From an uncultured Candidatus Saccharibacteria bacterium (GTDB lineage: Bacteria; Patescibacteriota; WWE3; UBA101185; UBA10185), in NCBI GenBank assembly GCA_964643995.1, contig CAZXUJ010000004.1:8606-72605 (forward strand): a stretch of DNA of 64,000 nt, read 5' to 3'. Positions 11,181-32,693 of this stretch are shown here, one piece after another. Made by a program: the position numbers and the translations under genes. The notes beneath the pieces were generated by a model. That model was not told the DNA's origin and did no database searches. It worked only from the letters and a program-made list of their open reading frames with translations. Numbering within the stretch: the stretch's first letter is position 1; every line of letters starts with the position of its first letter.

Positions 11181-11876
11181 TTATTCTATAATCGCAGGAT
11201 TTACAATTGCTGTCTTATAATCCTCTACACTTGTTCTAATTCTTTGACCATGCATGGAGCTTGGATTGTAAATGTCAAAGTATAATTCTACCAGTTCTTG
11301 TGTCGTAAGCTGTCGTGTTTTTACTCCTAGTCTGTTAAATTCCGCTGAGAGATGGTCGATTTTTGGCTGTATATCTCGTATGGAATCTTTTATAGCTTGA
11401 TCAACATTAACATTCACTCGTTTATTATGCGCTCCTAATAGCACCATGAACCATCCAAATGGGTTGGAGCTTTTGTTTACTTGATTAGTTCCTCCAGAAG
11501 ACACCACCACATAAAACTTCTTGTCTAATACGTCATTCCTTTCTATAACATCCTGAACGAATTCTCTATATGAAGTTGCTTGTTCTCGAAACAATGGGTC
11601 CGTAATTTTTCTTTCTAAGCGGTGAATTTTTTCAAGATATTTAGTAATATCTAACTTTTTTGATCTGATAACAATTTGAACAGGAAAGGTTATAGAATTG
11701 AGTAGCATTGCAAATGCCGAAATCATAGCATCTTGCTCAATCTCTGACAGTAAATCGAAATTAACAGCTGTTGTCTGCATCAATGCACTTACGGCTCCAC
11801 TTTTAAGCACCACTAAATTTTGTTTGATATCTAGAATATCTAAGTGTTCTTGGGTTGTTGCTTCAATAAATGACAT
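11181..11876 (-). CDS. hypothetical T4SS-associated protein, possibly a separately encoded VirB4 N-terminal-domain-like module
   Basis: 231-aa soluble ORF, translationally coupled: it stops 2 nt before the virB4-like start and starts 2 nt after the upstream membrane protein stop. No recognisable catalytic motif. Confidence 0.4.
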   Translation of the reverse strand: MSFIEATTQEHLDILDIKQNLVVLKSGAVSALMQTTAVNFDLLSEIEQDAMISAFAMLLNSITFPVQIVIRSKKLDITKYLEKIHRLERKITDPLFREQATSYREFVQDVIERNDVLDKKFYVVVSSGGTNQVNKSSNPFGWFMVLLGAHNKRVNVNVDQAIKDSIRDIQPKIDHLSAEFNRLGVKTRQLTTQELVELYFDIYNPSSMHGQRIRTSVEDYKTAIVNPAIIE

Positions 11877-11878: not shown

Positions 11879-13318
11879 TTACGCTCTTCCAACTATATCT
11901 ACAGGTGCCAGTACAGTTCCCGTAGCTTCAAAATTAATTATATCAAAGGTAAGATTAGTCTTGTTAGCTTTATCTGTCAGTATTGTATAAGATCCGTTGG
12001 ATAATGCTGTCGATATAACAAATTGTCCCAATTGATTTGTTTTTAGTCCTCTTACAGGTTCTTCCTTATCGTTTTTAATTATTACCACTACGCCATCTAG
12101 GGGGTTGCCTGCATAATCCTTAACAACACCAGAAATTATATTTGGCTTATTACTCAAGGGGTTAATGTTTGCAGTTTGTGCTGGTACAGAAGGTTCAGGT
12201 GGAGGGGGTTCTATCTTTGTTGTTTGGTTTGTTTTAGGTTCTGGTTCTGTAGCAAGCACTGGGGTTTCTACGGTTTGTTTTGTTTCTTGTGCCTTAGGTT
12301 GCATAGCAGGTGGTGTTTCTATCTTATCCGAATACTGTTCATCCGTTTTTATTTGATTGAGTAGTTTCCTTAATTGTTCTGCTTTATCCTCTATATCTCC
12401 TTGAATTTTTTCTTCATCTGCAGTCTTTAGTATTCTTTCGCCTCGTATAGGCAGAATTATTTCTCCTTGTTGTGGCAGTAAGTTCGTGAATTTTCTTCCT
12501 GAATGTCTGTCTGGTGTGATAGCTCTGGTCTTATACGATTGTTTATCTTCTTTTCTGCTCGGCATCAGTGCTGTCATTAGTTTCTTACGTTGTGGTTCTT
12601 TTTTTGGTTCCAGCGGTTTCGGTTGTTGAGGTGTTTCCTGTGCCTTAGGGGTTATCTCCATAGGTTTTTGCTCTTCTTTGTTTTTGTTTTCCTCAGGGTT
12701 TGTTGGTGTTGGAACTATTGGAGGTGGTGCTATCACGGGAGGTGCCGCTACAGGTATTTCTTGCACTTCCACTAATGGTTCCTCTACTAAAGTAGTAGTG
12801 GTTGTTGTTGTGCTAGTGCTTTGGAAAACACTTCTTAGTTTTTCTACGTATTCGTACTCGGATATGTCTAGCGGATCCGCAGGAGCCTCGAGTTCCTGAT
12901 GTTCCAAAAAATCCTCTAATTTTCTACGGCTGGAGGTTGGTGTTAGTGTAATAAGTTCCTGCTTTACAACTGCTAAATTTTCCATAGAGAGTGCTGCAGG
13001 AATCTCGGCCTCCTTTTTCCAGATTCTTTGAGTTGGTGCGTACATTGATTTAAAAAAGTTTATAAACCACTCATCAAGTCCGCGTTCTTGTAACGGAATA
13101 AATGCAAAGCCTATTCCCATTAACACAATTAGAATAACTAATGGCCACTTAAGTAAATTATTAATTCCTACAAATGTTCCATAGGCCATAGCACCAAACA
13201 CCATCAAATATATGAATTGTCGCATTGTTAAATCACCTATGATCTTGAACTCAACGTCCATTATGTTTTGTGGAACAGCATGTTGTCGATTTGTAGTTTG
13301 TACGTCATTTATAGGCAT
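11879..13318 (-). CDS. T4SS membrane protein: VirB3/TcpE-like TM hairpin, Pro/Thr/Lys-rich linker, and a CarboxypepD_reg-like beta-sandwich C-terminus
   Basis: 479 aa. Two N-terminal TM helices (…FIYLMVFGAMAYGTFV…WPLVILIVLMGIGFAFIPL) typical of VirB3/TcpE-like proteins. Long low-complexity linker (poly-T, PPPEP). C-terminal …VVKDYAGNPLDGVVVIIKND…GSYTILTD resembles a carboxypeptidase-regulatory-like fold. Confidence 0.4.
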   Translation of the reverse strand: MPINDVQTTNRQHAVPQNIMDVEFKIIGDLTMRQFIYLMVFGAMAYGTFVGINNLLKWPLVILIVLMGIGFAFIPLQERGLDEWFINFFKSMYAPTQRIWKKEAEIPAALSMENLAVVKQELITLTPTSSRRKLEDFLEHQELEAPADPLDISEYEYVEKLRSVFQSTSTTTTTTTLVEEPLVEVQEIPVAAPPVIAPPPIVPTPTNPEENKNKEEQKPMEITPKAQETPQQPKPLEPKKEPQRKKLMTALMPSRKEDKQSYKTRAITPDRHSGRKFTNLLPQQGEIILPIRGERILKTADEEKIQGDIEDKAEQLRKLLNQIKTDEQYSDKIETPPAMQPKAQETKQTVETPVLATEPEPKTNQTTKIEPPPPEPSVPAQTANINPLSNKPNIISGVVKDYAGNPLDGVVVIIKNDKEEPVRGLKTNQLGQFVISTALSNGSYTILTDKANKTNLTFDIINFEATGTVLAPVDIVGRA

Positions 13319-13363: not shown

Positions 13364-14782
13364 TTATTTTCTAACGTCTTTTTTACCAAGTAACGCTGTT
13401 TCTAGCTGCTTAGGTAACTTCCATGCTTGGCGGTACCCATAAGCAAATGTGAATGGAACTACAAAAGGCATCAACATTATTGCAAAGCCTAGGTCTGCAG
13501 CGGCAGGTATGTCATTACTTGTAAATTCGAACCCTACACTACATGCATTTGATATAGCATCCCCTATAACCAGAGCTACAACCAAATTCGTAAATGCAAT
13601 TAAAGCTCTCATACCTAACATTGCCAATACTAACACACCTATCTCTTTAAACCAGTCGGTAGTTTTGGTTTCATTACCTGGAATTGCACCTATTGCAAAA
13701 GTAAATGGTGCCCCAATTGTCTTTACGATAATCTTCAAATAGATCATTAATACTTTTATTTGTATTGCAATATATGTTACTAACGCCGCTATGAAACCTA
13801 ATGAACTAAGTATCATAATAGATAATCCAGGGCCACCAGTTGCCGCTAGAATTATGAATGTACCTACAATTGCTAATATTCCAAACCCTGTGACTTCTGC
13901 CGCGGAAGTGCCTGCTAATGAATGTACTATCTCTATAGCACTTCCTCTTAGGGCGTAACCAATACTTGCGAATGTAGCTCCAATAGCGTAACTAAAGGTA
14001 ATTAAGAATAGTGCGATTACAATTCTTGGAATAGCATACTGTACTGTTACCATAGCTTGTGCACTTACTTTCTTGCGAGTCATTATCATGACGCCAGTGA
14101 CTATCATTATTAAGGCAATAAAGCCGTAGGAGGCATCCCTAACTATTTTCCACAGTTCAAAAGTAATGTTTAAAAGTGGTATACTACTATAGTCGGCTGC
14201 TGTAGAAGGATTTATCTGAGCATAGGCGGTTCCTACCAAAGGTACATCTTCAACTTGACGCTTAACATAGTACGCTAAATTTAGTGGCAATGGCTCACGA
14301 TTAAATTTTGTTAATTGCCCTCCAATATAAGCAAGGCTTCCTCCTGCCTGTATGCTGCTTCCTGGAGCTTGTACAACGCCACAGTTAGGATCGTCTCTAC
14401 AGTCCACATCATCAACATAAGAGTTTAGTAGCCCGGCGCAATATGCAGCATCTTCGTCGCGCATTTGACAAGCTGCTGGTAATTCACATGAAAATAATGT
14501 AGAGGATTCTTGAATGTAGTCCACACATCTAAAGACATTTGCAGGAGAGCCTCCGGTTGCTATCAAGAAAGGTAAATCTACAGCTAATGTTGTGCCTGCA
14601 TTTACCATTGTTCTTCTAATACTGATATCCTCTAATGCATCTCTAATTCTTTCAAACAGTCCTCTGTCTGGTTGGCAAAGCTCTTCAAGTGATATCGCAT
14701 GGGACTTAGGAGCATATACCGCAACGGACATAGTTAAAACTAAAATTGTTATTAAAGACTTTATGCTAAGTTTAGACATCAT
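13364..14782 (-). CDS. VirB6/TrbL-like polytopic T4SS channel protein with an N-terminal Cys-containing ectodomain
   Basis: 472 aa. Signal peptide (…VAVYAPKSHA), about a 200-aa ectodomain with 8 Cys, then 6-7 TM helices. This architecture matches VirB6-like proteins of Gram-positive T4SSs. Confidence 0.45.
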   Translation of the reverse strand: MMSKLSIKSLITILVLTMSVAVYAPKSHAISLEELCQPDRGLFERIRDALEDISIRRTMVNAGTTLAVDLPFLIATGGSPANVFRCVDYIQESSTLFSCELPAACQMRDEDAAYCAGLLNSYVDDVDCRDDPNCGVVQAPGSSIQAGGSLAYIGGQLTKFNREPLPLNLAYYVKRQVEDVPLVGTAYAQINPSTAADYSSIPLLNITFELWKIVRDASYGFIALIMIVTGVMIMTRKKVSAQAMVTVQYAIPRIVIALFLITFSYAIGATFASIGYALRGSAIEIVHSLAGTSAAEVTGFGILAIVGTFIILAATGGPGLSIMILSSLGFIAALVTYIAIQIKVLMIYLKIIVKTIGAPFTFAIGAIPGNETKTTDWFKEIGVLVLAMLGMRALIAFTNLVVALVIGDAISNACSVGFEFTSNDIPAAADLGFAIMLMPFVVPFTFAYGYRQAWKLPKQLETALLGKKDVRK

Positions 14783-14897: not shown

Positions 14898-17800
14898 ATG
14901 GCGGATTCAAACCCCAATCCATTTTATTTCGGATATTACCCTGGAGAGCGCCCTGTTTACAGGGGCGGTGGTGGTAAACCAACTGGTCCTCTTTTTGATA
15001 TGCCTGCAGGAATGGATCTGTTGGGTGGTATAAATCAACTAGAGTATCAACTGGAGCGTGCTTTAGATACCGTTAACTTGCCTGGTTGGCTAAAGGAGAG
15101 ATATGTAAAAGATCTTACTGGTAGTTTAACCATTGGTGTTACTCCTGAAAAAAGAATAGACATGGAGGAGTTTGAGCGTCGTGGTACTGAGGCCTTAGAG
15201 GATATGCCTGGTGTGGCGGTTAAGATTTCTATCAATCCTGCGGATTGGGCAAAAGACCCTGGTGGAATGGCAAAAAAGACTGTGCAGGGTTGGGTAAGTG
15301 GTGTCTTTGATTTTGATGACTTTGATAGACGTTCTCGTTATAAGCTCTGGGCGACCATGCTCAGCGATGATAAACCTGATAACACACCATCAAATGGATC
15401 TTTCATAGATGATACGGTCAGAAGCTGGGAAACAAAATCACGCAAGGCTGCTGTGGCTGAAATGGAAAAAGCAGCCTTACGTTATGCAAATGGCCGTGGA
15501 ATGACCCCTGGGGTCGGTGACGATATAAGAGCAATCCGCAAAGATGTTCAACTAATAGGACGTGGTAAAAATCCCGATGATTATACCTCTACTATTCTCA
15601 GTCTGGATGATCCGATGTACTCGGGTGTTAAACAAGCCGTATTGGACTTTGAGCTGCATTCCACTAGCGTTAGGAAAAGGGAAGAATCTTATGATAATTT
15701 CGTGAAGAAGTCTCTTTATGCCATGGACGAGGACATAAAGAGTCAAGTTTTTCTTGCTAATGCAATGCAGACGCTCGACTTTAGCGATAGGCGTAATTGG
15801 GATGAGGATTTTGCTGCCAATGTTGATGCGCTAATGAAAAAACAAGTCCATGGTATGGATTGGGATGGTGCCAATGGTAGCTATTACTGGGAATCCGCAA
15901 ATTATGAGGAAAGTATTCGAAATCTTTATAGACGTAATGGTATTACTGATGCTGCAACACTAGATAGATATGTAGATCATGTTCAAGGATTACACTCCCA
16001 GGCAGAGTTATCACGTTATTTTGATAACTTACAGGCACAGATTGGGCAGGCTAGTAGAAATCTTGACGAGCTTTTAGTCTCAGAAAATCCCTTAAAAGCT
16101 ATAGATGCACAGGTTAATATGTTAGGGTTTCAAAAAACCTTAGGTCACGTAGATCAGAACGATATCAACTCATATATGACCACTTTGGATAGGTCTTTGC
16201 GCGCAGCTTATAGTGGTGATGGTGTCGCAAGAACTCAAACTGAACTGGATGCTTTAGTAAACAAGCGTATTTCTGAAATAAAGTCTTCTTTAGAAAATGT
16301 TAAAAGTTACTCTCCGGATCAGATAGAACACCTTATTAGTAAATTGCCGCTTGATCAACAGAAAAAAGTGCGTTCGGATATGCAACGCCATTTGGAATCT
16401 AGACGCGGATTAATAGGTACTAGACGAGAATTGGACAATATCTTGGGTGGTTTTGATGTAACCCAAATAAAAAATCTAAGTGTAGCTGAACGAAAAAAGT
16501 TGAAGAGGCAATTGAAGGAGCAACTTGATGGTGTAACTAAAGTTGGTCTAATAGGTGAAACTATTACAGGTGGTGATGTTCCATTGTGGGGGTACAGTGC
16601 TCAGAGAAAATATCTCCGCAACATTAATAATAGTTGGTTCAAGTATGACGAACATGAAAAGGCACTCGGTGGGATAACATCTAAAGGTAATGTACTTTTT
16701 TCGTTAATACCAAGATTAGAGGAAGAGCGTGCCCAACAAGAATGGGATGAGTTTTTTAATGCAATAGAAAAGGACGGCTTACTAAAGGGAATGTTAAACA
16801 CCTATGGTTGGAGTAGGTTGAAGGCTAAGTACAAATATCTTACTCCGAGTTATTACGTAGAAAAGGCACTCAGGAGTGTAAATAATTTTGGTTTGAAGAT
16901 TGAAGAAGCCCATAAAATCACTCGAAACATTAATGGTGTAAATGTAGATATGGATTATCTGTTCAAGATTGGAGGTGCCGGTGTTGGATTCCTTGGAGAT
17001 AGTACCGGAAAGACAACCAGGATTTTTGCCAATAGTTTTAAGGTTGAGTTTGATCTTCCAAGTGGTGTAAAAAAAGCCACTTTAATTGGTGGAGATCACT
17101 TTAATTTTCTAACCAACCATAAGTTCAAATCACAACTTAAAGAGTTGCGTGCTAGAAATCTTTTTAATCCAGATTCCTTTAAAGATCTGTTGATGTCAGG
17201 TTCTGAAGCAGAATTTTTACAAAAGCTACGTGCCGTGGGCTTTAAGATCCATGGGGATGCTGCAGCTGATCTGTTCAAGGAGTTTACTGCTTATAAACGT
17301 TGGTTGGATAAGCAGGCCGCCAAGTTAGGTGGCAACGCTAATGATCCAGCTTTTGCGTTTTCGATCTTCATGGGAGTTCATAACTATGACTTGATGCAAG
17401 ATCATTGGGGAGTATCAAGTGTTGTGGGCATAACAAAGAGATATGCCGGGCCGTTGCAGAAAGTCTACAAATATCTGAATGCCTTTCAAACAAGGTTATT
17501 CGAAACAACCTTAGGGCGTGTGCTCAATGTCGCCGTAAATTATAAAACACTTTTAGCACAAAAAATTGCACGTGGCTCATTAAGAATGTTTATTGAGCGT
17601 GCTATAACTAAATTACTTTCTTGGTTTGGACAGGCTGCTGCTTCAGAAACCGTAGTTGGCTCTTATCTTGTAAAAGCTATTGAGCCTGCTATTAGATATG
17701 TTGTAAAGAAAGTACTGGATGTTGGAGAGGCCGTTTTTAAAGCAGCATTAAAGTGGGACTTTTCAGGGATATTTGAGGAATTTGGTGCCGCCGTTAATGC

Positions 17801-18554
17801 CGCGTTCAAAATGATTTTAGGTGCTCTTGCGATACCAATTATAGTTATGGTTGGGGCAACGATTGTTATCACACATGTGCTTGGTGGTTTTGCTCCCGTC
17901 AATCCTGCTGTTATGGGTGGTGGTGAGTACACTTATGGGGGTCCTCCAGGTGGCGGTGTAAATGCAGCACCTCCTTGCCCAGAGGCAACCATAACACCAA
18001 GTAGTTGTATTTTTCGTGATGGTGGTGTCGTAAGCACAGGATCTTATACATCGAGTAATGAGACGGGACACGGATCAAATACCTACTGGAACAGTCTTGT
18101 AAACTGGGGTTATGTAAATGATCCTTGTGACTTTAATATACCAACCTCTGCCTCGGGTACGCCAGCAAGGGGTAGTTTGGTAGCAAGTAATGTTTGCAAT
18201 GGTTTGGATCCTGCAAGGAGTTACTATGGTTATGCTTCTGATAATGTTTCTAACAGTTGTTGGACTGTATATTTGCCAAATATTGCGGACAGTTGGTCTG
18301 TGGGTAATGTAGGGTCTGCTAACTTTGGTGGTTTAGCGGTAGCTACTGGTTATAATTCAGCCGGTGATGAAATATACAAAATGACTTTGTTACATATAGC
18401 TGTTGGTTCTGCTGTAACAGGCACCCTCGAACCTGGAGCCAAAGTAGCCGAAACAGCAGAATGGGGAGAAAACACTCATGTACATGTAGAGCTGGCAGAG
18501 TGGACTGGGAACGCATGGCAGGGGATACCCCCAGAAAGTGTTATTTGTAATTAG
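14898..18554 (+). CDS. large T4SS-associated protein with a degenerate C-terminal LytM/M23-like peptidoglycan hydrolase domain
   Basis: 1218 aa. N-terminal Gly-rich segment, a long alpha-helical charged region, and a TM helix near aa 970 (ILGALAIPIIVMVGATIVI). The Cys-rich C-terminal domain ends in …YKMTLLHIAVGS…GENTHVHVEL, resembling the M23 HxH motif. This is analogous to the large cell-wall hydrolases (PrgK/TcpG/CwlT) of Gram-positive conjugation systems. Confidence 0.45.
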   Translation: MADSNPNPFYFGYYPGERPVYRGGGGKPTGPLFDMPAGMDLLGGINQLEYQLERALDTVNLPGWLKERYVKDLTGSLTIGVTPEKRIDMEEFERRGTEALEDMPGVAVKISINPADWAKDPGGMAKKTVQGWVSGVFDFDDFDRRSRYKLWATMLSDDKPDNTPSNGSFIDDTVRSWETKSRKAAVAEMEKAALRYANGRGMTPGVGDDIRAIRKDVQLIGRGKNPDDYTSTILSLDDPMYSGVKQAVLDFELHSTSVRKREESYDNFVKKSLYAMDEDIKSQVFLANAMQTLDFSDRRNWDEDFAANVDALMKKQVHGMDWDGANGSYYWESANYEESIRNLYRRNGITDAATLDRYVDHVQGLHSQAELSRYFDNLQAQIGQASRNLDELLVSENPLKAIDAQVNMLGFQKTLGHVDQNDINSYMTTLDRSLRAAYSGDGVARTQTELDALVNKRISEIKSSLENVKSYSPDQIEHLISKLPLDQQKKVRSDMQRHLESRRGLIGTRRELDNILGGFDVTQIKNLSVAERKKLKRQLKEQLDGVTKVGLIGETITGGDVPLWGYSAQRKYLRNINNSWFKYDEHEKALGGITSKGNVLFSLIPRLEEERAQQEWDEFFNAIEKDGLLKGMLNTYGWSRLKAKYKYLTPSYYVEKALRSVNNFGLKIEEAHKITRNINGVNVDMDYLFKIGGAGVGFLGDSTGKTTRIFANSFKVEFDLPSGVKKATLIGGDHFNFLTNHKFKSQLKELRARNLFNPDSFKDLLMSGSEAEFLQKLRAVGFKIHGDAAADLFKEFTAYKRWLDKQAAKLGGNANDPAFAFSIFMGVHNYDLMQDHWGVSSVVGITKRYAGPLQKVYKYLNAFQTRLFETTLGRVLNVAVNYKTLLAQKIARGSLRMFIERAITKLLSWFGQAAASETVVGSYLVKAIEPAIRYVVKKVLDVGEAVFKAALKWDFSGIFEEFGAAVNAAFKMILGALAIPIIVMVGATIVITHVLGGFAPVNPAVMGGGEYTYGGPPGGGVNAAPPCPEATITPSSCIFRDGGVVSTGSYTSSNETGHGSNTYWNSLVNWGYVNDPCDFNIPTSASGTPARGSLVASNVCNGLDPARSYYGYASDNVSNSCWTVYLPNIADSWSVGNVGSANFGGLAVATGYNSAGDEIYKMTLLHIAVGSAVTGTLEPGAKVAETAEWGENTHVHVELAEWTGNAWQGIPPESVICN

Positions 18555-18569
18555 TTTGAAAGTGCAAAG

Positions 18570-19079
18570 TTGATGTCTTCATTTATAAACAAGCTAAAAG
18601 CAAACAAAGGACTGTTGTTGATAATATTTGGGTTGTTAATAATAGTACTGATTTTTATATTCGACCTAGCTCGTCTTAATGAAAAGTCTACTACACAAAC
18701 TCCCAAGATTGTAACTCAGGAAGATGCTCTAAAACCGGGAGATATTGTTCAATTGATAAAAATGACCCCTGCTGAAGGATTAAAGCATCAAACATTGGAT
18801 CCTTTCCAGGTGATTACTTTTGAATTTAGTGATCCGGTAGATTTGTCTACCATAGAAATCTCTGTATTGCCGGCTATTGATCATAACGTACGCGTTTTGG
18901 AAAATGATAAGTCTAAGGTTGTGGTATTACCAAAAGCCTCAGGTTGGCTCCCATACACAGAATATCAGATAAGAATAACAAATCTTAGATCAACTGACGG
19001 TAAGGGGTTATCTGCAACAGCGAGCTATAAATACAAAAATACTCCTCCGGAAATAAAGTTTAACGAATTACCCTACTAA
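18570..19079 (+). CDS. membrane-anchored protein with an Ig-like ectodomain (hypothetical)
   Basis: 169 aa, one N-terminal TM (LLLIIFGLLIIVLIFIF), then a beta-rich domain. Confidence 0.4.
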   Translation: MMSSFINKLKANKGLLLIIFGLLIIVLIFIFDLARLNEKSTTQTPKIVTQEDALKPGDIVQLIKMTPAEGLKHQTLDPFQVITFEFSDPVDLSTIEISVLPAIDHNVRVLENDKSKVVVLPKASGWLPYTEYQIRITNLRSTDGKGLSATASYKYKNTPPEIKFNELPY

Positions 19080-19083: not shown

Positions 19084-19554
19084 TTAGTTACACCCTGAAA
19101 TACCACTAAGTATTGGAGGTCCGCTTACCGTGGAGTTCGTTAAAAATTCGCAAAATCTTTCCTGCATAAGTCCAAAAACTCCGCCTCCAACCAGTTCTAT
19201 ATTGAAGCCAAATGCACCAGCTATTATCGAAAACATTGTGTAAAGCCCAGTCACTGCAACCAGTCCCCACACAGCATATGTTAAAGTGTTTTTTGCTCCC
19301 AGTGCTCCCTTAGGATCACCCAATGAAGTTGAATATTTGTAGGAAGCGAAACCTACAATCGCAACAAATACTGCCCCCGCGGATAAAATTAGCATGTTTA
19401 TAACACCGATAAACGGACATACTATTTGTACGATTGAAGGATCATCATAGTTTACGTTGTTACAATTTTGTGCAAAAGAAATCCTTGGAAAAGTAAAGGT
19501 TGTTAGAACAAATACTCCCAGTACTAATAAAGTTTTAAAACGTTGGAATACCAT
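19084..19554 (-). CDS. VirB2/TrbC-like pilin paralog with extra N- and C-terminal Cys-containing extensions
   Basis: 156 aa. Signal peptide, then a two-helix hairpin with the family loop motif KYSTSLGDPKGALGAKNTL (compare ITSRGDAKAAEQARGAL, MESLGDPKAVDSAKNAL in the neighbours). Confidence 0.5.
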   Translation of the reverse strand: MVFQRFKTLLVLGVFVLTTFTFPRISFAQNCNNVNYDDPSIVQIVCPFIGVINMLILSAGAVFVAIVGFASYKYSTSLGDPKGALGAKNTLTYAVWGLVAVTGLYTMFSIIAGAFGFNIELVGGGVFGLMQERFCEFLTNSTVSGPPILSGISGCN

Positions 19555-19864
19555 TCTGTAAGTCCGTGTTTGACACGCCTATTGAATTAAATACCACTGC
19601 CTTTATGGTTAATGCTCCTCCGCAAAGAAGAAATGCCAGTATACTATACTTGAGTGCATTTTTTGCACTGTCTACTGCTTTTGGATCACCAAGGCTTTCC
19701 ATAAATTTTATTCCCGAAATAATAATAACTATTAATGATATTGCTATACCTGATCCTATTATATAGTTAAGCACTACAGACATAATTGCACCTAAACTCT
19801 CATACTGAGTTCCCGTAATATTAGATTCTTCTGCAATTAAATTAGTTAAAATACCCACAATCAC
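19535..19864 (-). CDS. VirB2/TrbC-like pilin paralog
   Basis: 109 aa, two hydrophobic helices flanking FMESLGDPKAVDSAKNALKYS. C-terminus …NGIPTF similar to …NNVTPF of the next paralog. Confidence 0.5.
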   Translation of the reverse strand: MIVGILTNLIAEESNITGTQYESLGAIMSVVLNYIIGSGIAISLIVIIISGIKFMESLGDPKAVDSAKNALKYSILAFLLCGGALTIKAVVFNSIGVSNTDLQNGIPTF

Positions 19865-19885
19865 CTACCTTTATCACTGAAGCCT

Positions 19886-19909
19886 CACCCCTCGGGGTGA
19901 GGCATAAAA
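19886..19909. terminator. perfect GC-rich hairpin (GCCTCACCCC-TCGG-GGTGAGGC) between pilin paralogs
   Basis: 10-bp inverted repeat seen directly. On the minus (coding) strand it is preceded, rather than followed, by a U-run. It may therefore act as an attenuator or mRNA-stability element rather than a full intrinsic terminator. Confidence 0.4.
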
Positions 19910-19927
19910 TAAGTTCAAATTCAGAGT

Positions 19928-20269
19928 CTAGAACGGAGTTACGTTGTTTAAGCCTGCTGTATTTGTACCACCTGTTAATACGTTTGCTACAACATATCTG
20001 ATTGTTACTGCTGCTATAACAACTATGAAACCGATAACTGCGTTTGTTAATGCACCTCTAGCTTGTTCAGCTGCTTTGGCATCACCTCTAGAAGTTATGT
20101 ACTGTATACCTCCTAAAATCAAGAATACAACTGTCAAAGCTATACCAATACCCAACACGATATTTGTTATTATCGTAAAGATCTGTGCTAAAGTAACTTT
20201 TGTACCAAGAGCTAAAGGATTCACAACAGTGCTTGTCGAAACTGCTTGTGCTAATACTTCTCTTAACAT
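19928..20269 (-). CDS. VirB2/TrbC-like pilin (candidate major pilin)
   Basis: 113 aa. Long leader, two hydrophobic helices separated by QYITSRGDAKAAEQARGALTNA. Strong SD GGAGGTG 7 nt upstream. Its own AT-rich upstream region (20270-20381) and a downstream hairpin. Confidence 0.55.
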   Translation of the reverse strand: MLREVLAQAVSTSTVVNPLALGTKVTLAQIFTIITNIVLGIGIALTVVFLILGGIQYITSRGDAKAAEQARGALTNAVIGFIVVIAAVTIRYVVANVLTGGTNTAGLNNVTPF

Positions 20270-20381
20270 TTTCCTACACCTCCTTCTATAGATTACTAAA
20301 AAAATTTACATACTGATGCTTATAAATAAGCTATATATATTATAGCAAATTTATTACTTTGATATTGAACTAATCATTCTC

Positions 20382-21254
20382 CTACTGTCCTAGGAAGTTT
20401 TTCAGAATAATTCTCAAAATGGATAGTGCTAAAAGTAAGAATAATAGTCCGGATATAGCTGCTGTAAGTTCTTCTATTCCTCTCTTTACTTTCATTGGAT
20501 CGCCTTGACTGGTCATTATGGTGTAACTGGCAATTGCAACTGTAGGTATACCTAGCAATCCTATAGCTATGGGTAACATAAGGCGGTACATGTTTTGTAA
20601 GAAGCTCTCATAGTCCACGATTGATCCATCATATTCATTCGGAGTTATAGGTTCGTCAAAGATAGCAAAGGGATCGCCACAGTAACTGTTACCATCGGTG
20701 TATTGTGTGCAGTTAACGCCACCGCAACATCCTCCTGGTACCGGTGTCCCCCCTGAAACGCAGACATTCCCGTATGGTATACAGCCCTGGCCACCACAAA
20801 TACCTCCTCCGTTTTGTTGCACAGTACAGGACCCCCCTGCACACTGATAGTCATACGTACATGGAGACCCATCTGGTAACACATTTCCACAGGAGCCTAG
20901 TGGTGGTGTTATACATTGCCAGTTCCCGCCAACATCCTGACCACACTGTTGTCCTTGGCTACAACCCCCTTCCTCATCACATTCATTGAAAGTTCCGGAA
21001 TCTCCACATGTTATGGTACATGCCGCACTTGGTTGACATGTTCCAGGTTGTGGTGGTGCTGGAGGTGTTTCCGCCGGATTAACACAGACATATCCCGCCG
21101 CACAATCGACATCAGACCATGGTCCTCCACATGAGCCATCACCATCATCACATGAACTGCCTGTAGTTCCATCTCCTGCGTAAGTTTTATTGGAACTTAA
21201 GGTAGCCACGAGCAAGAACAATATTGAAATTTTCATTATGTCTTTAATGATCAC
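20382..21254 (-). CDS. secreted Cys/Gly-rich protein with a C-terminal VirB2-like pilin domain
   Basis: 290 aa. Signal peptide (probable start at MKISILF…, about 21236). About 180 aa with 36 Cys. C-terminal …YESFLQNMYRLMLPIAIGLLGIPTVAIASYTIMTSQGDPMKVKRGIEELTAAISGLLFLLLALSILRIILKNFLGQ is homologous to the small pilins. Confidence 0.5.
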   Translation of the reverse strand: MIIKDIMKISILFLLVATLSSNKTYAGDGTTGSSCDDGDGSCGGPWSDVDCAAGYVCVNPAETPPAPPQPGTCQPSAACTITCGDSGTFNECDEEGGCSQGQQCGQDVGGNWQCITPPLGSCGNVLPDGSPCTYDYQCAGGSCTVQQNGGGICGGQGCIPYGNVCVSGGTPVPGGCCGGVNCTQYTDGNSYCGDPFAIFDEPITPNEYDGSIVDYESFLQNMYRLMLPIAIGLLGIPTVAIASYTIMTSQGDPMKVKRGIEELTAAISGLLFLLLALSILRIILKNFLGQ

Positions 21255-21259
21255 TTTAT

Positions 21260-22825
21260 CTAATTTCCAAGAAAGTTATTTAATACTATTCTAAGTATTG
21301 TCAAAGCTAATAGCAAATATAATATTCCTGCTCCAGTGGCAGTTAAGTCTTCTGTGCCTTCTTTTAATTGGTCTGGGTTGCCTCGACTTGTCATAATTCT
21401 ATAGCCAGCAAGCGTGACTAGAGGTATTCCAGCTATCCCTATGGCTAGAGGAAGCAACAGTTTATATAAGTTTGACAGCATGCTTTCAAAGTCCACTATG
21501 GCTCCTACATAGGTGGGTGGTATGGCCTCCTCATCTTCATATGTAGTTTCGTCTGAAATTCCTCCGCTACCTGCTGTACAGTCGCAAGTGCCTCCATTAT
21601 CAGGTTCGTTAGGATTTATTGGTATACAGGTACCTCCAAAAGTACATATATCTTGACATATTTGGTCTCCTGCAACACCCACATCGCAAATAGGTTCGGC
21701 ACTAATGCATATCTGTGTGTTTGCCCATGCGTTAAACGCGCATGTTTGGCTGCTATCACAGCATGGTGTGTTTATTTGATTACACTCCTCTCCGACAGTA
21801 GCACAATTTGGTCCTGGGCCACTTCCACATACCGTATGATCAGCACATATTGGGTTTGATCCGGCCTGACAGTATTGTGTGCTTGGGCATCCGCCTATAC
21901 CACAGTCTGTGGCTTCGGGTGTACCAGTTACGGGACTAGTACAAGGTGTGCCTGTGGGGATACATTGTGCTCTATTATTGCAGGTAGGCTCTCCCCCATT
22001 ACTTTCGCATCGTTGCCCTGCGGTACACCCGCCGTCGCCACAGGTGTCGGGATCTACTGTTGTTGTATACCAGTATACTGGAGGTCCGCATGATGCCGTA
22101 CATTCTTCACGCGTATTGCATATGCCACCACCACCTAAAGTTTCACATCTTTGTGAGTCGCCACAAACGCCTTGTCCACATTGTGTAGAATCCACGGGTG
22201 ACTGGTACCAGTATGCCGGTGAACATGCTTGTTGAGCGTAGCATGCGCTTCTTGAAACACATTGGGGTGTGCCACTTCCGTTAGACTCACACCTTTGACC
22301 GGCTGCACAAGTATCCTCGCCGCATGTATCCGGTTCTACTGCCGTTTGATACCAATAAACATTAGGTCCGCATGGATTTGGTGGGGGAGGGGCGGGAGTT
22401 TGGCAGTTGGCTGCGGCTGATACAGTCTCAGTAGTGCAGTTGCCACTAGTATTACAGTACTCCCAAGTGTAGGTTATGTTTGCAACAATATCGGCTGAGT
22501 GTGTGTTCACTGTGGTTGAAAAATTCCAACCCGGTGGGCATGGTGACCCCCAGTCGCAAGTGCATCCGAAATTGGTACATGTAGCATTTCCTCCCCATCC
22601 GTCTGATTCAGAGTAGATAACACTTCCATTTCTTGTAACAACCTCTTCTACGTCTATATCGCTGTAGTAGCCCTCCTCTGGTACTAGAACGTAGTCAACA
22701 TCTATGCCACTTGCCCCTAAAGTACACTCCGTAATCTGTACGCTAACACTGCCTGCGGCATGTGCGCTTCCTAAACCATGAAACCAGAAAGTTATAAAAA
22801 ATAGAAAAATAAATAAATATTTCAT
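21260..22825 (-). CDS. secreted modular Cys-rich repeat protein with a C-terminal VirB2-like pilin domain
   Basis: 521 aa. Signal peptide, about a 120-aa N-terminal domain shared with the 436-aa paralog (…CDWGSPCP…), three ~45-aa repeats YWYxxxVxPDTCGxxxCxxGQRCESNG…C, more Cys-rich modules, then the pilin-like C-terminus (…IMTSRGNPDQLKEGTEDLTATGAGILYLLLALTILRIVLNNFLGN). Confidence 0.5.
   Translation of the reverse strand: MKYLFIFLFFITFWFHGLGSAHAAGSVSVQITECTLGASGIDVDYVLVPEEGYYSDIDVEEVVTRNGSVIYSESDGWGGNATCTNFGCTCDWGSPCPPGWNFSTTVNTHSADIVANITYTWEYCNTSGNCTTETVSAAANCQTPAPPPPNPCGPNVYWYQTAVEPDTCGEDTCAAGQRCESNGSGTPQCVSRSACYAQQACSPAYWYQSPVDSTQCGQGVCGDSQRCETLGGGGICNTREECTASCGPPVYWYTTTVDPDTCGDGGCTAGQRCESNGGEPTCNNRAQCIPTGTPCTSPVTGTPEATDCGIGGCPSTQYCQAGSNPICADHTVCGSGPGPNCATVGEECNQINTPCCDSSQTCAFNAWANTQICISAEPICDVGVAGDQICQDICTFGGTCIPINPNEPDNGGTCDCTAGSGGISDETTYEDEEAIPPTYVGAIVDFESMLSNLYKLLLPLAIGIAGIPLVTLAGYRIMTSRGNPDQLKEGTEDLTATGAGILYLLLALTILRIVLNNFLGN
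21970..22378 (-). repeat. three tandem ~135-bp coding repeats (Cys-rich module) inside the 521-aa gene
   Basis: Protein-level triple repeat PxYWYxxxVxPDTCG…GQRCESNG…C at about aa 150-285. Coordinates approximate. Confidence 0.45.
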
Positions 22826-24132
22826 AAACCTCCTAGAAAATTACGTAGGATTATTCTAAGTATAGAAAGTGCTAACAATATGTACAAAATACCTTTAACT
22901 GCTTCAGTCATATCTTCTTTACCTTCTTTTACTGCTTTAGGGTCACCTTGGCTTGTAAGAATCCTGTAGGCACCTAGTATTACTATCGGTATTCCGCCTA
23001 AACCAATTGTAAGTGGTAGCATCAACCTGTATACGTTTTGTAAAAAGCTTTCATAGTCAATAATTGGCCCCGTGTATGTTGGAGGTTCAGCAGATTCGTC
23101 CGCAATGTTTATCAAGGATCCTGGAGGAAGTGTTGCATCTGTGTTACACACGCATGTACCTCCTGCATCGGGGTTGTTTATGTCTAGTATTTCACAGCGT
23201 CCTCCTAGTGAACAGGTGCTGTTGCACTGGGAGTGTTGCCCTGGTTCGCACATGTTTCCTGAAGTGCACACCTTTGTTCCAGCATAGGGAATAAAGCTAC
23301 ATGATTGTGAAGTATCACAACAAGGTCTTGTGTTTACGTTGCAAACCTGACCAATTACAGCGCACTGGCCACCATTACATACGCTGGAAGGTACGCATGT
23401 TGGCGTCCAATTTGGTGGCCCTATTACACAGTAATCCCCGCTGCCACATCCCCCAATTCCGCAATCATCAGCTGTAGGTTGTTGTGTATATGAAACAGGA
23501 TTTGAGCATTGTCCTGGATTTCCCGCGCATACAGCAGCTGATATGCATCTTGGTTCCCAATCCGGGGCACCAATCACACAGTATGAATCAGAGGCACATT
23601 CTCCACCGCAATCGTCTATAGTAGGTGTCTGGCTATAGGGGATTGGATCTCCGCATTCATCAGGGTTAATAGGTGTTGTGCAAACCGCACTCCCCGTATA
23701 TTGCTCTGTAATAGTCGTTCCGTTTACATCGGTAAAGTCCCATGTCATTTGTACAATAGCGGTAATAGTCGCATCTTCCTCGGTTGCAGTCTCTGTAAAA
23801 TCCTGTGTGATAGGGCAAGGGGATCCCCAATCGCAAATACACCCTTGACTATCGCATATTACTGTTCCTCCCCATGCGTCTGGATAGCTGTATATTTGTG
23901 CGCCATTTTGTAGTATGGTTTCTTGGACTTGTATATCAGCATAATTGCCTGGTATTGTAACCATTTCGTAACTGATACCTAAGTTGTCTAGTCCCGTTTC
24001 ACAAGTTGTAATGTCCACATTAACACCTCCGGCAGCAAAACTGGCTCGGGGTAGAGCAACAAATAAAGAAACAAAAAATATTGATAATAGATAAAGTTTT
24101 GTGAAATTTCTCACTTTAGTAAAGTATATCAA
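22822..24132 (-). CDS. secreted modular Cys-rich repeat protein with a C-terminal VirB2-like pilin domain
   Basis: 436 aa. Signal peptide, a paralogous N-terminal domain (…CDWGSPCP…), two ~42-aa repeats (…DDCGxxxCxSGDYCVIGxPxWxPxC…), and the pilin-like C-terminus (…ILTSQGDPKAVKEGKEDMTEAVKGILYILLALSILRIILRNFLGGL). Confidence 0.5.
   Translation of the reverse strand: MIYFTKVRNFTKLYLLSIFFVSLFVALPRASFAAGGVNVDITTCETGLDNLGISYEMVTIPGNYADIQVQETILQNGAQIYSYPDAWGGTVICDSQGCICDWGSPCPITQDFTETATEEDATITAIVQMTWDFTDVNGTTITEQYTGSAVCTTPINPDECGDPIPYSQTPTIDDCGGECASDSYCVIGAPDWEPRCISAAVCAGNPGQCSNPVSYTQQPTADDCGIGGCGSGDYCVIGPPNWTPTCVPSSVCNGGQCAVIGQVCNVNTRPCCDTSQSCSFIPYAGTKVCTSGNMCEPGQHSQCNSTCSLGGRCEILDINNPDAGGTCVCNTDATLPPGSLINIADESAEPPTYTGPIIDYESFLQNVYRLMLPLTIGLGGIPIVILGAYRILTSQGDPKAVKEGKEDMTEAVKGILYILLALSILRIILRNFLGGL
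23382..23646 (-). repeat. two tandem ~130-bp coding repeats inside the 436-aa gene
   Basis: Protein-level duplicate PxxYxQxPTxDDCGxxxCxSxxYCVIGxPxWxPxCxxxxVC at about aa 163-250. Coordinates approximate. Confidence 0.4.
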
Positions 24133-24150: not shown

Positions 24151-25974
24151 ATGATATGTTATTATTCACTTATGCTCAAGGTTACTAAGATAGTGCCGTT
24201 ATTTTTCGTTTTATTTTTTTCGCTAATCTTGATGGCAATAGTACCTCTGACTACAGTGTTTGCGGATGACCCTTGTAAAAACATATCTGACCTTGACGAT
24301 AAAGCAGAGTGCTACGAAAAAGAGATAGAAGAACGTGAAGAAAAGTACGAGTCTACTAGCAAAAAACTTGAGGATGTGCGCAACCAAAAAAACTCTGTTA
24401 CTTCAAAGATAAGCAATTTATTAGGTCAACTAAGTGTCACCCAGGAAGAACTGACCGGAATCCAGAATGAGATCAACGACATGAACAAAACCCTTGAGGA
24501 GATAAAATCTAACCTTCAGGACAAAAACGTTCAATTAGACAAAAAGGTTGATCTTAGAAACAGAATAGTTAGAAACTATACTAAACGTGGTGTTCTAAAT
24601 GAACTTGAAACCTACTTTGCCCAACGCAAAGAAGCTGGACTTAATGGTTTTCAATATTCCACGGTTTCCTATATTTTTCAAAAGACCCTTAACGAGGAAT
24701 CTATACGTCTGATAAACATACTAAACACCGAAATATCCAATTTTGAAAAAGATAAAAAAGAAGCTGAAGATCTCAAAAAGGAACTGGAAACAGCTCAGGC
24801 TAGTTTGATTTCTGCAAAAAACCAATTGGAAAATCAGAAGAATCAGGAAGAGGGAACTTTGGATGTTTTGTCTGACAAAGAAGGTGACTACGAAGGTGAA
24901 TTAAAGAGTTTATCTGCTCGAATAGCTGAACTATCCTCCAAACAACAAGAAGTGCTATCTGCAAAAAATGGCGGCGATAATGGTTCTGTTGGTGACTACG
25001 AGTCGCCTAGTTGGAAAACACCTGATCCACCTTTCAAACCAGCATTCGCTGCTTTTAGCTATGGCGCATACACTCACTATCGAGGAATGAGCCAGTATGG
25101 TGCAAAAGGTCGTGCAGAAGACGGACAAAGTTATGAGGATATTATTAAGTTTTATTACAAAAAAGATGTCGAAGAGAAAGATGACTTTCCTGACGAAGTT
25201 AATGTCGATGGTTACGGTGAGTTGGATTTTCAGTATTATCTTTACGGCTTGGCCGAAATGCCAAGTGATTGGCCTGAAGAAGCTCTTAAAGCTCAGGCTA
25301 TTGCCGGCAGAACGTATGCCTATAGGTACGTAAAACAAGGCAAATCTATTTGCACATCTCAAAGTTGTCAGGTTTTTCTTAAGAGTAAAGCCGACAACCC
25401 CCCAAGTCGTTGGAAAGAAGCTGTTGATGACACTGAGGGCATGATTATTGAAGGAGATACTCATGCTATGTATTCATCAACCACAGGTGGCTATATTGAT
25501 GATGGCGTAGGTTGGGATGGTAAGTGGCCCAGCGACTCATATGAAAACAAAGCAGACTCACCTTGGTTTTATTGGGCGTGGTATTCCAAGAGTTACACTT
25601 TTAATTCTGATACTTGCGGTCATGCACATCCTTGGCTATCAGAAAAAGAGATGGCGGACATCCTAAACGCTTATGTGGTGTTGAATGATCACTCCGATAG
25701 TAAAGTTTCCCCATTAACCACCAATTGTTGGGGAGGTGACCCATACTCCATGGATGAACTACGCGAAAAAGCTGACGATATTTCAACAGGTTACTCAAAG
25801 GTCACGAATATAGATGTTAATGTAGGTAATAACGGCCAAACGACTCAAGTAACCCTTTCAACTGATAAAGGTACCATCACTGTGGATGGGCAAACTTTTA
25901 AAAAAGCATTTAATTTACGTGCTCCTGCATACGTTTCAATAAGAAGCAGACTCTACGATTTTCAAGTCAAATAA
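24151..25974 (+). CDS. membrane-anchored coiled-coil protein with a SpoIID/LytB-domain peptidoglycan-remodelling C-terminus
   Basis: 607 aa. N-terminal TM, about 250 aa of heptad-rich charged coiled coil, then the SpoIID/LytB signature (…AQAIAGRTYAYRY…SQSCQVF…). Confidence 0.65.
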   Translation: MICYYSLMLKVTKIVPLFFVLFFSLILMAIVPLTTVFADDPCKNISDLDDKAECYEKEIEEREEKYESTSKKLEDVRNQKNSVTSKISNLLGQLSVTQEELTGIQNEINDMNKTLEEIKSNLQDKNVQLDKKVDLRNRIVRNYTKRGVLNELETYFAQRKEAGLNGFQYSTVSYIFQKTLNEESIRLINILNTEISNFEKDKKEAEDLKKELETAQASLISAKNQLENQKNQEEGTLDVLSDKEGDYEGELKSLSARIAELSSKQQEVLSAKNGGDNGSVGDYESPSWKTPDPPFKPAFAAFSYGAYTHYRGMSQYGAKGRAEDGQSYEDIIKFYYKKDVEEKDDFPDEVNVDGYGELDFQYYLYGLAEMPSDWPEEALKAQAIAGRTYAYRYVKQGKSICTSQSCQVFLKSKADNPPSRWKEAVDDTEGMIIEGDTHAMYSSTTGGYIDDGVGWDGKWPSDSYENKADSPWFYWAWYSKSYTFNSDTCGHAHPWLSEKEMADILNAYVVLNDHSDSKVSPLTTNCWGGDPYSMDELREKADDISTGYSKVTNIDVNVGNNGQTTQVTLSTDKGTITVDGQTFKKAFNLRAPAYVSIRSRLYDFQVK

Positions 25975-28981: not shown

Positions 28982-29959
28982 GTGGTGGGGAGTTGGCGGA
29001 AATGCGCTGTTGCTTGTACAATGCTGATTAGGAAACTGCCCTACTCTAAACATATGTACCAAGAAAAGGCTAGTTTCTTAGATAAGTTAATAAACACTCT
29101 TTTATCCCCTTTTGACAGATTTATTTTCAAATCAAAGCATAATATTGGTGATGATAGTTACATGCAGATTTTGAATGGTGGAAAAGATATAACTAAACTT
29201 AGTGAAAAGTGGCTTAAATACTACTATTTACATATCCACTCAAAGCTATATGAAATTATGTGTGGCGTTTATGATGGTTATGATAACCAGCCAGATTATG
29301 TATTTGTCTCAGTAGATACTGAACTAGATGACTTATACCAAGAATTGTGGAATACATGGAGAGTAATTGATAGATACCCCTTTATTGACGCATTAAAACT
29401 TGGTCAATATAACTATTTCAAATCTCTAAATTATGACACTTCATATAGGGTTAAAATGTGGCGAGGAGTTAAAAAGGGATTTGTTGGAGATATTGAAAGT
29501 ATTGGAAAGGAATTATCACTAGAACCCCTACCAAATGACTTGAAACTAGCCTTTACAAAGATTGATAAACTGCTTTTAGAACATATAACCAAAAAGAATT
29601 TAGTACTTTTTGGCAACATCATAAAACACAAAAAAGTTACCCTAAACAAAGACCAAAATACAATAACAATTGAGGGTAGGAAGCCAATAAATATAACATC
29701 AAATGAGTTAAGGCTACTTAGGCTTATGCTAGAAAGTATTGATAGCACAGTTACATATAAACAAATAGCCGAAACCCTTAATATAACCGCATATTTTGGT
29801 AAAGTTGATAAAGCCTTAAAAGATAATATTCAACAAATCAAAAGGGATATTTTTGAGACACTGGTTTCCAATAATGTAGACAAAGCAACTGCAAATGAGA
29901 TAAGAGACTACTTAGAACCAGTAAGAAATACAGGCTATATAGTGCGCAGTAACAACTAA
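28982..29959 (+). CDS. element-encoded protein with a C-terminal OmpR/PhoB-like winged-helix DNA-binding domain
   Basis: 325 aa. C-terminal …TIEGRKPINITSNELRLLRLMLESIDSTVTYKQIAETL… resembles trans_reg_C. The N-terminal domain is unknown. The true start may be at a downstream Met (for example MYQEK…, about 29054). Confidence 0.4.
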   Translation: MVGSWRKCAVACTMLIRKLPYSKHMYQEKASFLDKLINTLLSPFDRFIFKSKHNIGDDSYMQILNGGKDITKLSEKWLKYYYLHIHSKLYEIMCGVYDGYDNQPDYVFVSVDTELDDLYQELWNTWRVIDRYPFIDALKLGQYNYFKSLNYDTSYRVKMWRGVKKGFVGDIESIGKELSLEPLPNDLKLAFTKIDKLLLEHITKKNLVLFGNIIKHKKVTLNKDQNTITIEGRKPINITSNELRLLRLMLESIDSTVTYKQIAETLNITAYFGKVDKALKDNIQQIKRDIFETLVSNNVDKATANEIRDYLEPVRNTGYIVRSNN

Positions 29960-30214
29960 ACACAAATTTCCCCATAAAATTCCCCATCATTTTCACATGT
30001 AAATAACTTGCTAAAAACCCTATTGTCAGCCCATGCAGGAAGCAAGTGGGCAGAAACTCAAGCCAAAAAAAGAACAACTAAACAAAATCAAAGAAGTCTT
30101 TAATCAAGATTACAACTTAAATCTTTCTGATAAAGAAGTTTTGGATTGCTATATCTCATTTTTCTACTTAGGCAGGGCAATTTTTAACTTCAACTTACAG
30201 AAAGGCAGTGCTAT

Positions 30215-32666: not shown

Positions 32667-32693
32667 CCAATTAGACCACTCTTGCACCTCTCC
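32604..32693 (-). tRNA. tRNA-Ser (anticodon CGA), type II with a long variable arm, CCA encoded
   Basis: Hand-folded: acceptor GGAGAGG/CCTCTCC, discriminator G plus CCA. D-stem CAA/TTG with a GG in the loop. Anticodon loop CTCGAAA. Variable arm TGCGCG…CTCGCA. T-arm GAGGG-TTCGAAT-CCCTC. Confidence 0.7.

Follow-up and report, generated by a model that had tools for sequence, protein, structure and literature searches.

Cysteine-rich ectodomains joined to pilin domains in a six-gene array beside a Patescibacterial type IV secretion system

We examined a 64,000-nucleotide (nt) stretch of contig CAZXUJ010000004.1, called the window below; all coordinates are positions in it. At 19084-24132 it carries six co-directional open reading frames (ORFs) on the minus strand, with short gaps or overlaps between them. 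This array sits in a type IV secretion system (T4SS) cluster with VirB4, PrgI/VirB3 and VirB6-like genes, and its transcription runs away from a divergent gene for a SpoIID-domain protein (24151-25974, plus strand). We refer to the six products as A156 (19084-19554), B109 (19535-19864), C113 (19928-20269), D290 (20382-21254), E521 (21260-22825) and F436 (22822-24132). An initial annotation, made from the sequence alone, had proposed six consecutive minus-strand genes sharing one domain, and the ORF listing contains all six at the expected positions and sizes. D290, E521 and F436 are true fusions in which an ectodomain is joined N-terminally to that domain, as the annotation had also recognized.

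The shared domain has two helices and a length of about 85 amino acids (aa). Within it, the small proteins A156, B109 and C113 align with the last ~95 aa of D290, E521 and F436. Hydropathy finds two transmembrane (TM)-length segments in every copy (6/6 proteins), and the serine and glycine of the loop motif S/T-x-G-D/N-P are invariant in the alignment of all six. The helical hairpin occupies 20385-20645 in D290, 21263-21520 in E521 and 22825-23085 in F436. Hydropathy also predicts an N-terminal signal-like segment in A156, D290, E521 and F436, which agrees with the signal peptides first assigned to the three large proteins. These segments end in AxA-type sites (SFA/A, AHA/A, TYA/G and SFA/Q, with the slash at the predicted cut).

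The region ahead of the hairpin in D290, E521 and F436 measures roughly 175-410 aa and leads into the hairpin through a linker of acidic and proline residues. From A156 to F436, the proteins have 4, 1, 0, 22, 44 and 30 cysteines. The large three were originally credited with 36-60 cysteines, a range that the actual counts of 22, 44 and 30 do not bear out. All three totals are even, and cysteine makes up 9-11% of these ectodomains.

A six-cysteine module of 39-44 aa, with the spacing C-x13-15-C-x3-4-C-x5-C-x7-10-C-x5-C, occurs four times in E521 (21827-22372) and twice in F436 (23377-23655; ~43 aa, DDCGxxxCxSxxYCVIGxPxWxPxC). Its copies are 25-67% identical, and they correspond to the repeated modules of ~45 aa that had been noticed initially. 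No DNA-level tandem repeat underlies these protein modules, which indicates that the duplications are old. Downstream of them, both proteins have a C-x6-C-x6-CC-x5-C-x10-C unit, which is followed by one with the spacing C-x3-C-x5-C-x13-C-x-C. In E521 these knottin-like and terminal modules lie at 21578-21805, and in F436 the unit with cystine-knot-like spacing and the terminal cysteine-rich module lie at 23146-23364. D290, whose Cys/Gly-rich ectodomain spans 20655-21176, has a looser C-x6-C-x11-CC-x4-C-x10-C pattern and no C-x3-C-x5-C-x13-C-x-C unit.

At their N-termini, E521 (22400-22756) and F436 (23677-24033, aa 34-152) share a domain of about 118 aa that includes the sequence CDWGSPCP. The two versions are 41% identical, so the proposed paralogy of this domain stands. 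AlphaFold2 (AF2) models it in F436 as an all-beta sandwich with a predicted local distance difference test score (pLDDT) of ~80; the cysteine-rich parts of the same model have pLDDT below 50. Foldseek searches with the F436 model returned generic immunoglobulin (Ig)-like sandwiches only, none at E<=1e-3.

The initial annotation had called the cysteine-rich modules EGF/knottin-like. Inhibitor cystine knot (ICK) and EGF-like modules are likewise six-cysteine units of ~40 aa, and the spacing C-x6-C-x6-CC-x5-C-x10-C is compatible with the ICK signature. However, no array protein has a significant hidden Markov model (HMM) match to such a family, and none has a confident model of this part. The best match is that of D290 to the Pfam family Omega-atracotoxin (E 0.02; 15 bits, where the cut-off is 22). 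With no Pfam cysteine-rich family matched and a low-confidence AF2 model, the resemblance is one of spacing only.

The Pfam family T4SS_pilin (PF18895) matches the same region of each of the six proteins, which is the extreme C-terminus in D290, E521 and F436. The E-values are 5.2e-11 for C113 (42.9 bits), 9.5e-7 for B109 (29.2 bits), 1e-3 to 2e-4 for the three large proteins (19.4-21.8 bits; 3.8e-4 at aa 363-427 of F436) and 0.09 for A156 (13.3 bits). The gathering score of 26.6 bits is reached by B109 and C113 only. NCBIfam NF045849 (Mbov_0395 pilin-like conjugal transfer protein) matches B109 (2.9e-7), C113 and D290. A profile made from the C-termini of D290, E521 and F436 recovers A156, B109 and C113 at 2e-5 to 2e-8, and family-specific profiles tie A156, D290, E521 and F436 to B109 and C113 at 2e-5 to 1e-49. 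The pre-helix motif YES..N.Y and the helix-2 motif [RK]xxxxN of the large proteins' hairpin are also found in B109 and C113. Chance or artefact as the source of the shared domain was rejected on the HMM statistics and the conservation in orthologues. Given the Pfam and NCBIfam matches, we uphold the proposed identity of the shared domain as a pilin domain of T4SS (VirB2-like) type. No Pfam or NCBIfam match to VirB5/TraC was found in any of the six proteins.

A comparison with TrbC/VirB2 structures and HMMs had also been suggested, and its outcome is divided. Direct scores are not significant. C113 gives a collinear but weak match to TrbC/VirB2 (PF04956; E 0.14), and hhalign of the small-pilin profile with Agrobacterium tumefaciens VirB2 gives a non-significant probability of 0.7%. 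AF2 models C113, with 25 homologues, as a helical hairpin (helices 27-59 and 64-98, pLDDT 74), and the F436 model has hairpin helices at 360-393 and 409-433. In a Foldseek search of the PDB with the C113 model, the A. pernix conjugation pilus (8dfu) ranks first and VirB2 of the A. tumefaciens T-pilus (8exh) third, both with non-significant E-values (2.6-3.0). PDB sequence searches with C113 or a six-protein profile gave only spurious matches to designed repeat proteins. A phmmer search with A. tumefaciens VirB2 retrieves no other pilin family, so that test has little power.

The connection through other family members, by contrast, is positive. Tandem-pilin proteins recovered by the profile of the large proteins' hairpin pass PF04956 with 51-55 bits, and SEML1_0018 and SEML1_0019 of Southlakia epibionticum match PF18895 as well as PF04956 (Wang et al. 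2023, Table S2). Judged from these sequence profiles, the link between the array domain and TrbC/VirB2 is transitive, and as such it appears good.

Like VirB2, TrbC and TraA (PF04956; T-pilus 8exh, F-pilus), the array domain has two hydrophobic helices with a short polar loop. The genes occur with VirB3/VirB4/VirB6, and some products have an N-terminal leader. The known pilins differ in that they are ~70-120 aa long, have no appended domain, are in several cases cyclised and belong to Gram-negative systems, whereas the host here is a monoderm. A156, B109 and C113 fit the small size; D290, E521 and F436 do not. Since both termini are expected outside in VirB2/TrbC/TraA, an N-terminal fusion would be topologically permissible.

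We searched 1.84 billion cluster representatives with a profile built from the C-terminal domain of D290, E521 and F436, which we call the class-1 profile after the class defined below. This gave 4771 matches at E<=1e-3, 298 of which reach E<=1e-10. We examined 153 sequences: the best 150 of the 4771 matches, plus close homologues from an earlier search. In 104 of the 153, the hairpin is at the extreme C-terminus of a protein longer than 200 aa. Among these 104 long homologues, 87 have at least 5% cysteine in the remainder, and 97 match PF18895 at E<1e-3. Their N-terminal regions match no Pfam family, save for a single DUF7107 match (E 2.2e-4), and the ectodomains cannot be aligned with one another beyond close relatives. 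Such a pairing of constant stalk and diversifying head is typical of receptor-binding proteins. A first contig scan with the class-1 domain profile had given no match, and a word-indexed protein search with it, in which the candidates were capped, gave mostly short pilins.

These homologues bear on the idea that the knottin-like modules are effectors, tethered until proteolysis releases them into the host, with a hairpin that would serve only for T4SS recognition. The cystine-knot-like spacing, the weak Omega-atracotoxin match of D290 (E 0.02) and the acidic/proline linker ahead of the hairpin are in line with this idea. However, the 104 homologues have no significant match to a toxin family, and a conserved cleavage motif was not identified. 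The ectodomains, which range from 40 to 570 aa and include Ig-like domains, suit adhesins better than toxins. We therefore consider release as effectors very improbable.

Genomic look-ups of diverse family members and eight GTDB loci provided 12 related loci for an analysis of synteny. Their conserved order is VirB4 - VirB4N - PrgI - VirB6-like / ~1200-aa protein - (Big_5) / pilin array / SpoIID. At least one of the ~1200-aa protein and the pilin array is kept in 12/12 loci and the VirB6-like gene in 11, and VirB4/PrgI are seen where the flank reaches them (L011 and L014; PrgI also in L002). At all 11 loci that show the start of the array, its first gene, on the SpoIID side, encodes a signal peptide, a cysteine-rich region and a hairpin; the products have 162-659 aa and 7-64 cysteines. 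The search for the fusion in other genomes, which had been proposed as a check, thus succeeded both here (11/11 loci) and among the homologues (104/153 sequences).

The 51 pilin domains of these arrays cluster by array position and not by genome, and they form four classes. Class 1 comprises the ectodomain-bearing pilins. Its hairpin is the best conserved, with a mean identity of 43% as opposed to 34-39% in the free pilins. This conservation extends to the loop, more than a passive anchor would require. Classes 2 and 3 are small pilins, to which C113 and B109 belong, respectively. Class 4, represented by A156, comprises proteins of ~150 aa that have both a signal peptide and a tail at the C-terminus (a ~40-aa extension in A156). 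Class 1 normally consists of one gene. F436, E521 and D290 represent a lineage-specific triplication that is also present in a second assembly, L002. Diversification by duplication, which had been suggested for the two larger proteins, is therefore apparent in the E521/F436 paralogues and extends to the whole triplet as copies of one gene class.

To estimate selection, we compared the window with L002, which has orthologues of all six proteins at 80-90% aa identity (80% for F436; D290 also has an orthologue, P0004). The ratio of nonsynonymous to synonymous substitution rates (dN/dS) is 0.03-0.16 where it could be estimated, indicating strong purifying selection; dS is mostly saturated. In E521, dS saturation precludes a ratio, and dN is 0.098. 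All cysteines are conserved between the two assemblies in F436 (30/30), E521 (44/44), D290 (22/22) and A156 (4/4). As ectodomains and hairpins have similar rates in this comparison, there is no sign of recent diversifying selection. The similar divergence at short distance makes ectodomain diversification a long-term pattern, with no demonstrable current arms race.

Six related genes in a row could also be alternative versions of one subunit that serve antigenic or host-range variation, as has been suggested for the VirB2 paralogues of Bartonella and Anaplasma. Quinonero-Coronel et al. proposed this for the arrays, citing the low identity among members, and the local triplication of D290, E521 and F436 with differing ectodomains is in keeping with it. 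On the other hand, the four classes are old and bound to their positions across genomes; they differ in architecture and keep one order. Purifying selection acts on all six genes in the window and L002, and no promoter, terminator or invertible-repeat switching signal was detected in the array. We regard interchangeable variants as an improbable account of the array as a whole; variation is plausible within class 1 (F436, E521, D290).

Within the operon, C113 has the highest aa identity to its L002 orthologue (90%) and the lowest dS (0.41, against 1.0 to >4 in the rest). Its region (19928-20381) has a consensus Shine-Dalgarno sequence, GAAGGAGG, and a 112-nt AT-rich upstream spacer. These four features suggest that C113 could be the highly expressed major subunit. 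The spacer between D290 and C113 shows no unusual folding (z -0.48), and the counts of promoters and terminators in the array are not above shuffled expectation.

A156 has two cysteines in its N-terminal tail (C31 and C46) and two in its C-terminal tail (C135 and C155), and both tails are predicted to be extracellular. All four are kept in L002 but not conserved in more distant orthologues. It is a speculative thought that these tails might form a disulfide-stapled analogue of the head-to-tail cyclisation of VirB2/TrbC.

Pilin arrays as such are already in the literature (PMC12102498, PMC10633639 and PMC12857230). Arrays of 2-11 VirB2-like genes were found with PF18895 in 383 Patescibacterial assemblies (Quinonero-Coronel et al. 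2025, PMC12102498). S. epibionticum has an essential series of predicted pilins, the six PF18895 genes SEML1_0014-0019 (PMC10633639). A 2025 FEMS review describes Patescibacterial pilin arrays as unique among monoderm systems. The expanded pilin family of the initial annotation is therefore not new. The window's array resembles those published in its PF18895 domains, in its tandem arrangement by VirB4/PrgI/VirB6-like genes near dnaA, in its six genes, in having no relaxase or coupling protein nearby and in the low identity among members. However, the published members are described as small divergent pilins, with no mention of cysteine-rich fusions of 200-570 aa with signal peptides, and a fixed four-class order is absent from the descriptions. 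SEML1_0015 has its pilin domain at aa 115-180, hence a modest N-terminal extension, and may be a counterpart of class 1. In the literature searched, we found no account of pilins fused to cysteine-rich ectodomains, in accordance with the suggestion that they are undescribed. The ectodomain-bearing class, its conserved first position and the four-class organization all appear to be undescribed.

The T4SS core lies on the minus strand and adjoins dnaN, yidC and dnaA. It includes a VirB4 ATPase of 743 aa (8947-11178) that matches NCBIfam NF045971 (conju_CD1110) with 377 bits, against a cut-off of 325, and the Pfam TraG P-loop family. Next to it is a split-off VirB4 N-terminal part of 231 aa (11181-11876), which matches TraC_F_IV weakly and has a single TM segment. 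VirB4 is also split into two ORFs at L011 (4261-7224) and L014 (4187-7081). As WWE3-like and other Patescibacterial metagenome-assembled genomes (MAGs) keep this split, it is not a frameshift artefact. The core continues with a 479-aa protein (11879-13318) that joins a PrgI/VirB3-like part (PrgI 5e-13) to a CarboxypepD_reg beta-sandwich domain, and with a VirB6-like polytopic protein of 472 aa (13364-14782) with at least five TM blocks. The latter has a predicted signal peptide and an N-terminal ectodomain of ~190 aa, containing cysteine, before its TM segments. Together with the PrgI-CarboxypepD_reg fusion, this ectodomain indicates that several parts of the T4SS carry extra extracellular domains.

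The VirB4 of CD1110/PrgJ type and PrgI are markers of the MPF-FATA (monoderm) type, and the window ORFs that were scanned include no VirB7/9/10, relaxase or coupling protein. The array and core match the published chromosomal, oriC-proximal and relaxase-less MPF-FATA-like T4SS of Patescibacteria (PMC12102498). As for the host, the window's VirB4 and its counterpart in a WWE3 MAG share 71% identity. The nearest relatives of a 1218-aa protein encoded beside the array are, among GTDB species representatives, in MAGs of candidate division WWE3 and other Patescibacteria. A Saccharibacterial affinity is therefore replaced by a WWE3-type one.

What the sequences show is how the domains are arranged, which topology elements are predicted in them, how the pilins fall into conserved classes, that the array is linked to a T4SS and that its genes are under purifying selection. 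From this, we read the array as the pilin operon of a chromosomal, monoderm-type T4SS, in which ectodomain-bearing minor pilins display adhesin modules on the T4SS filament or channel. We assign this reading a probability of about 0.5. In such a system, class-1 proteins would be exported by Sec and their leader cut at the AxA-type site. The ectodomain would stay outside, locked by putative disulfides, which the even and conserved cysteines suggest. By analogy with VirB2/TraA topology, the hairpin would insert with both termini outside and with the S-x-G-D-P-K loop in the cytoplasm, later in the lumen. The VirB4-driven machine could then pull hairpins from the membrane and polymerize the small pilins into a short filament or a wall-crossing extension of the channel, with C113 probably as the main subunit. 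Class-1 subunits would be incorporated by way of the common hairpin, either at the tip or in low stoichiometry, so that their cysteine-rich modules face the host cell as an adhesin or host-specificity element.

This tip-pilin or adhesin role of class 1 is inferred. The class-1 hairpin is always encoded in one operon with the three free-pilin classes, which suggests co-assembly. The high conservation of this hairpin and its loop, and the motifs common with B109 and C113, favor co-assembly over a passive anchor. A more specific model, which we hold a little less firmly, is a heteromeric filament of VirB2 fold made of four pilin classes. In this model, the class-1 ectodomain would be the host-recognition adhesin, and rapid ectodomain turnover together with local duplication, as in the three copies here, would set the host range of these obligate epibionts.

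Several points weigh against the pilin-display reading. D290, E521 and F436 score below the PF18895 gathering score (19-22 versus 26.6 bits). Direct homology and fold tests against solved VirB2/TraA pilins did not reach significance, and helical hairpins are not specific as a fold. With a mean pLDDT of 55, the ectodomain model is of low confidence, so disulfide topology and a binding surface cannot be read from it, and the window has no Dsb/MdbA/VKOR gene; MdbA/VKOR-like families are enriched in the candidate phyla radiation (CPR). Between the window and L002, the ectodomains evolve no faster than the hairpins. A T4SS pilus has been seen in no Patescibacterium, so filament formation is assumed. 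Finally, a VirB2-type helical lattice would hardly have room for an N-terminal domain of 200-570 aa on each of its subunits, so class-1 incorporation, if any, would have to be sparse or terminal.

Some of these points are shared by a different explanation, namely that the hairpin of D290, E521 and F436 is a two-pass anchor or T4SS docking element. The proteins would then be surface adhesins or wall-spanning channel parts that stay in the membrane and never enter a filament. Monoderm T4SSs mostly lack a pilus and rely on surface adhesins (PMC12102498), no filament has been observed for a Patescibacterial T4SS, and bulky ectodomains would cause steric problems in a VirB2 lattice. The locus also has other wall or surface proteins suited to a wall-spanning assembly (the SpoIID, Big_5, 1218-aa and PrgI-CarboxypepD_reg proteins). 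A mere anchor, however, does not account for a class-1 hairpin that is more conserved, polar loop included, than the free pilins (43% versus 34-39%). Nor does it explain why the YES..N.Y and [RK]xxxxN motifs are common to this hairpin, B109 and C113, or why class 1 always shares one operon with three free-pilin classes. We consider the anchor a serious alternative, although an unlikely one.

Pilin-borne display by class 1 has partial parallels in other systems. The tip adhesins VirB5, TraC and CagL are similar in their proposed role, as low-abundance subunits for target-cell contact. They differ in having no sequence relationship to the array proteins, and VirB5 is soluble, helical and off the VirB2 fold, whereas the modules here are covalently fused to the hairpin. 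Minor pilins of type IV pili with adhesin domains (or, by analogy, pIII versus pVIII of filamentous phage) likewise combine a conserved polymerization helix with a variable exposed domain, often disulfide-stabilized. They also have several classes per operon and an adhesin at the tip. Their fold and machine are nonetheless unrelated (class III signal peptide, PilB/PilC), and their hydrophobic element is at the opposite end. PrgB-type LPXTG adhesins are surface adhesins encoded with an MPF-FATA-type T4SS, but the array has no LPXTG/sortase signal or homology to them and is anchored by a pilin-like hairpin. The PrgB type was not found in Patescibacterial T4SS loci (PMC12102498). The Pam pili of CPR bacteria were rejected as an explanation, as they are a different, Ig-fold donor-strand system.

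The function of Patescibacterial T4SSs has been called completely unknown (PMC11665869), and the T4SS is essential in the sole genetically tractable Patescibacterium. No adhesin has been found for this type of system (PMC12102498). Among the unknown extracellular proteins of cultured Patescibacteria, those with the T4SS-pilin domain rank with the most highly expressed (PMC10936435). This high expression and the essentiality in S. epibionticum indicate that the pilin family matters biologically. Encoded by a conserved first gene and widespread in metagenomes, class-1 pilins are candidates for the means by which ultra-small epibionts recognize their hosts, and their ectodomains could serve as host-specificity markers. 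If the reading of class 1 as minor pilins is true, the VirB2 pilin paradigm widens from small bare subunits to domain-bearing ones. Given the four-class, fixed-order organization, the published variable arrays would be structured multi-subunit sets rather than antigenic variants.

Two plus-strand genes for surface proteins lie between the T4SS core and the array (14898..19079). One encodes the 1218-aa protein (14898-18554), which has no family match in Pfam or NCBIfam, and the other a 169-aa membrane protein with a Big_5 Ig-like domain. The 1218-aa protein is kept beside the array at related loci and has one hydrophobic block (aa 963-1001). Its C-terminal domain contains cysteine and ends in NTHVHVELAEW, with an H-x-H reminiscent of LytM/M23 peptidases; this C-terminus has no PDB relative by sequence.

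The SpoIID-domain protein (24151-25974, plus strand; Pfam SpoIID 7e-18) has an N-terminal coiled coil and a signal anchor. Its gene is the divergent neighbor of the class-1 gene in L002-L004 and L007-L012, that is, in every related locus that reaches this side. It may be a cell-wall remodelling factor of the T4SS, equivalent to VirB1.

We also noticed single ORFs with 3-8 tandem PF18895 hairpins, at L005 (9925-12387, which is P0063, and also in L006) and in P0028, P0060, P0068 and P0122. They come from independent JGI and ENA assemblies, reach 820 aa with 16 predicted TM helices and have almost no cysteine; P0060, P0063 and P0068 also pass Pfam TrbC/VirB2. Next after this ORF in L005 come genes for a 155-aa pilin, a pilin-PKD fusion of 383 aa and a PKD-repeat protein of 718 aa. 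These arrangements point to poly-pilin precursors encoded by the tandem-hairpin ORFs and to a second kind of pilin-ectodomain fusion in L005.

Rfam and PADLOC gave no match in the window. A block of low GC content (0.33-0.35) at 28982-32693 contains genes for a Rep protein (REP_ORF2-G2P, 30215-31144) and a large serine recombinase (31137-32666), as well as an ORF of 325 aa. The 3′ end of the recombinase gene abuts tRNA-Ser(cga) at 32604-32693, and the block looks like a small plasmid- or phage-like element integrated at the tRNA gene.

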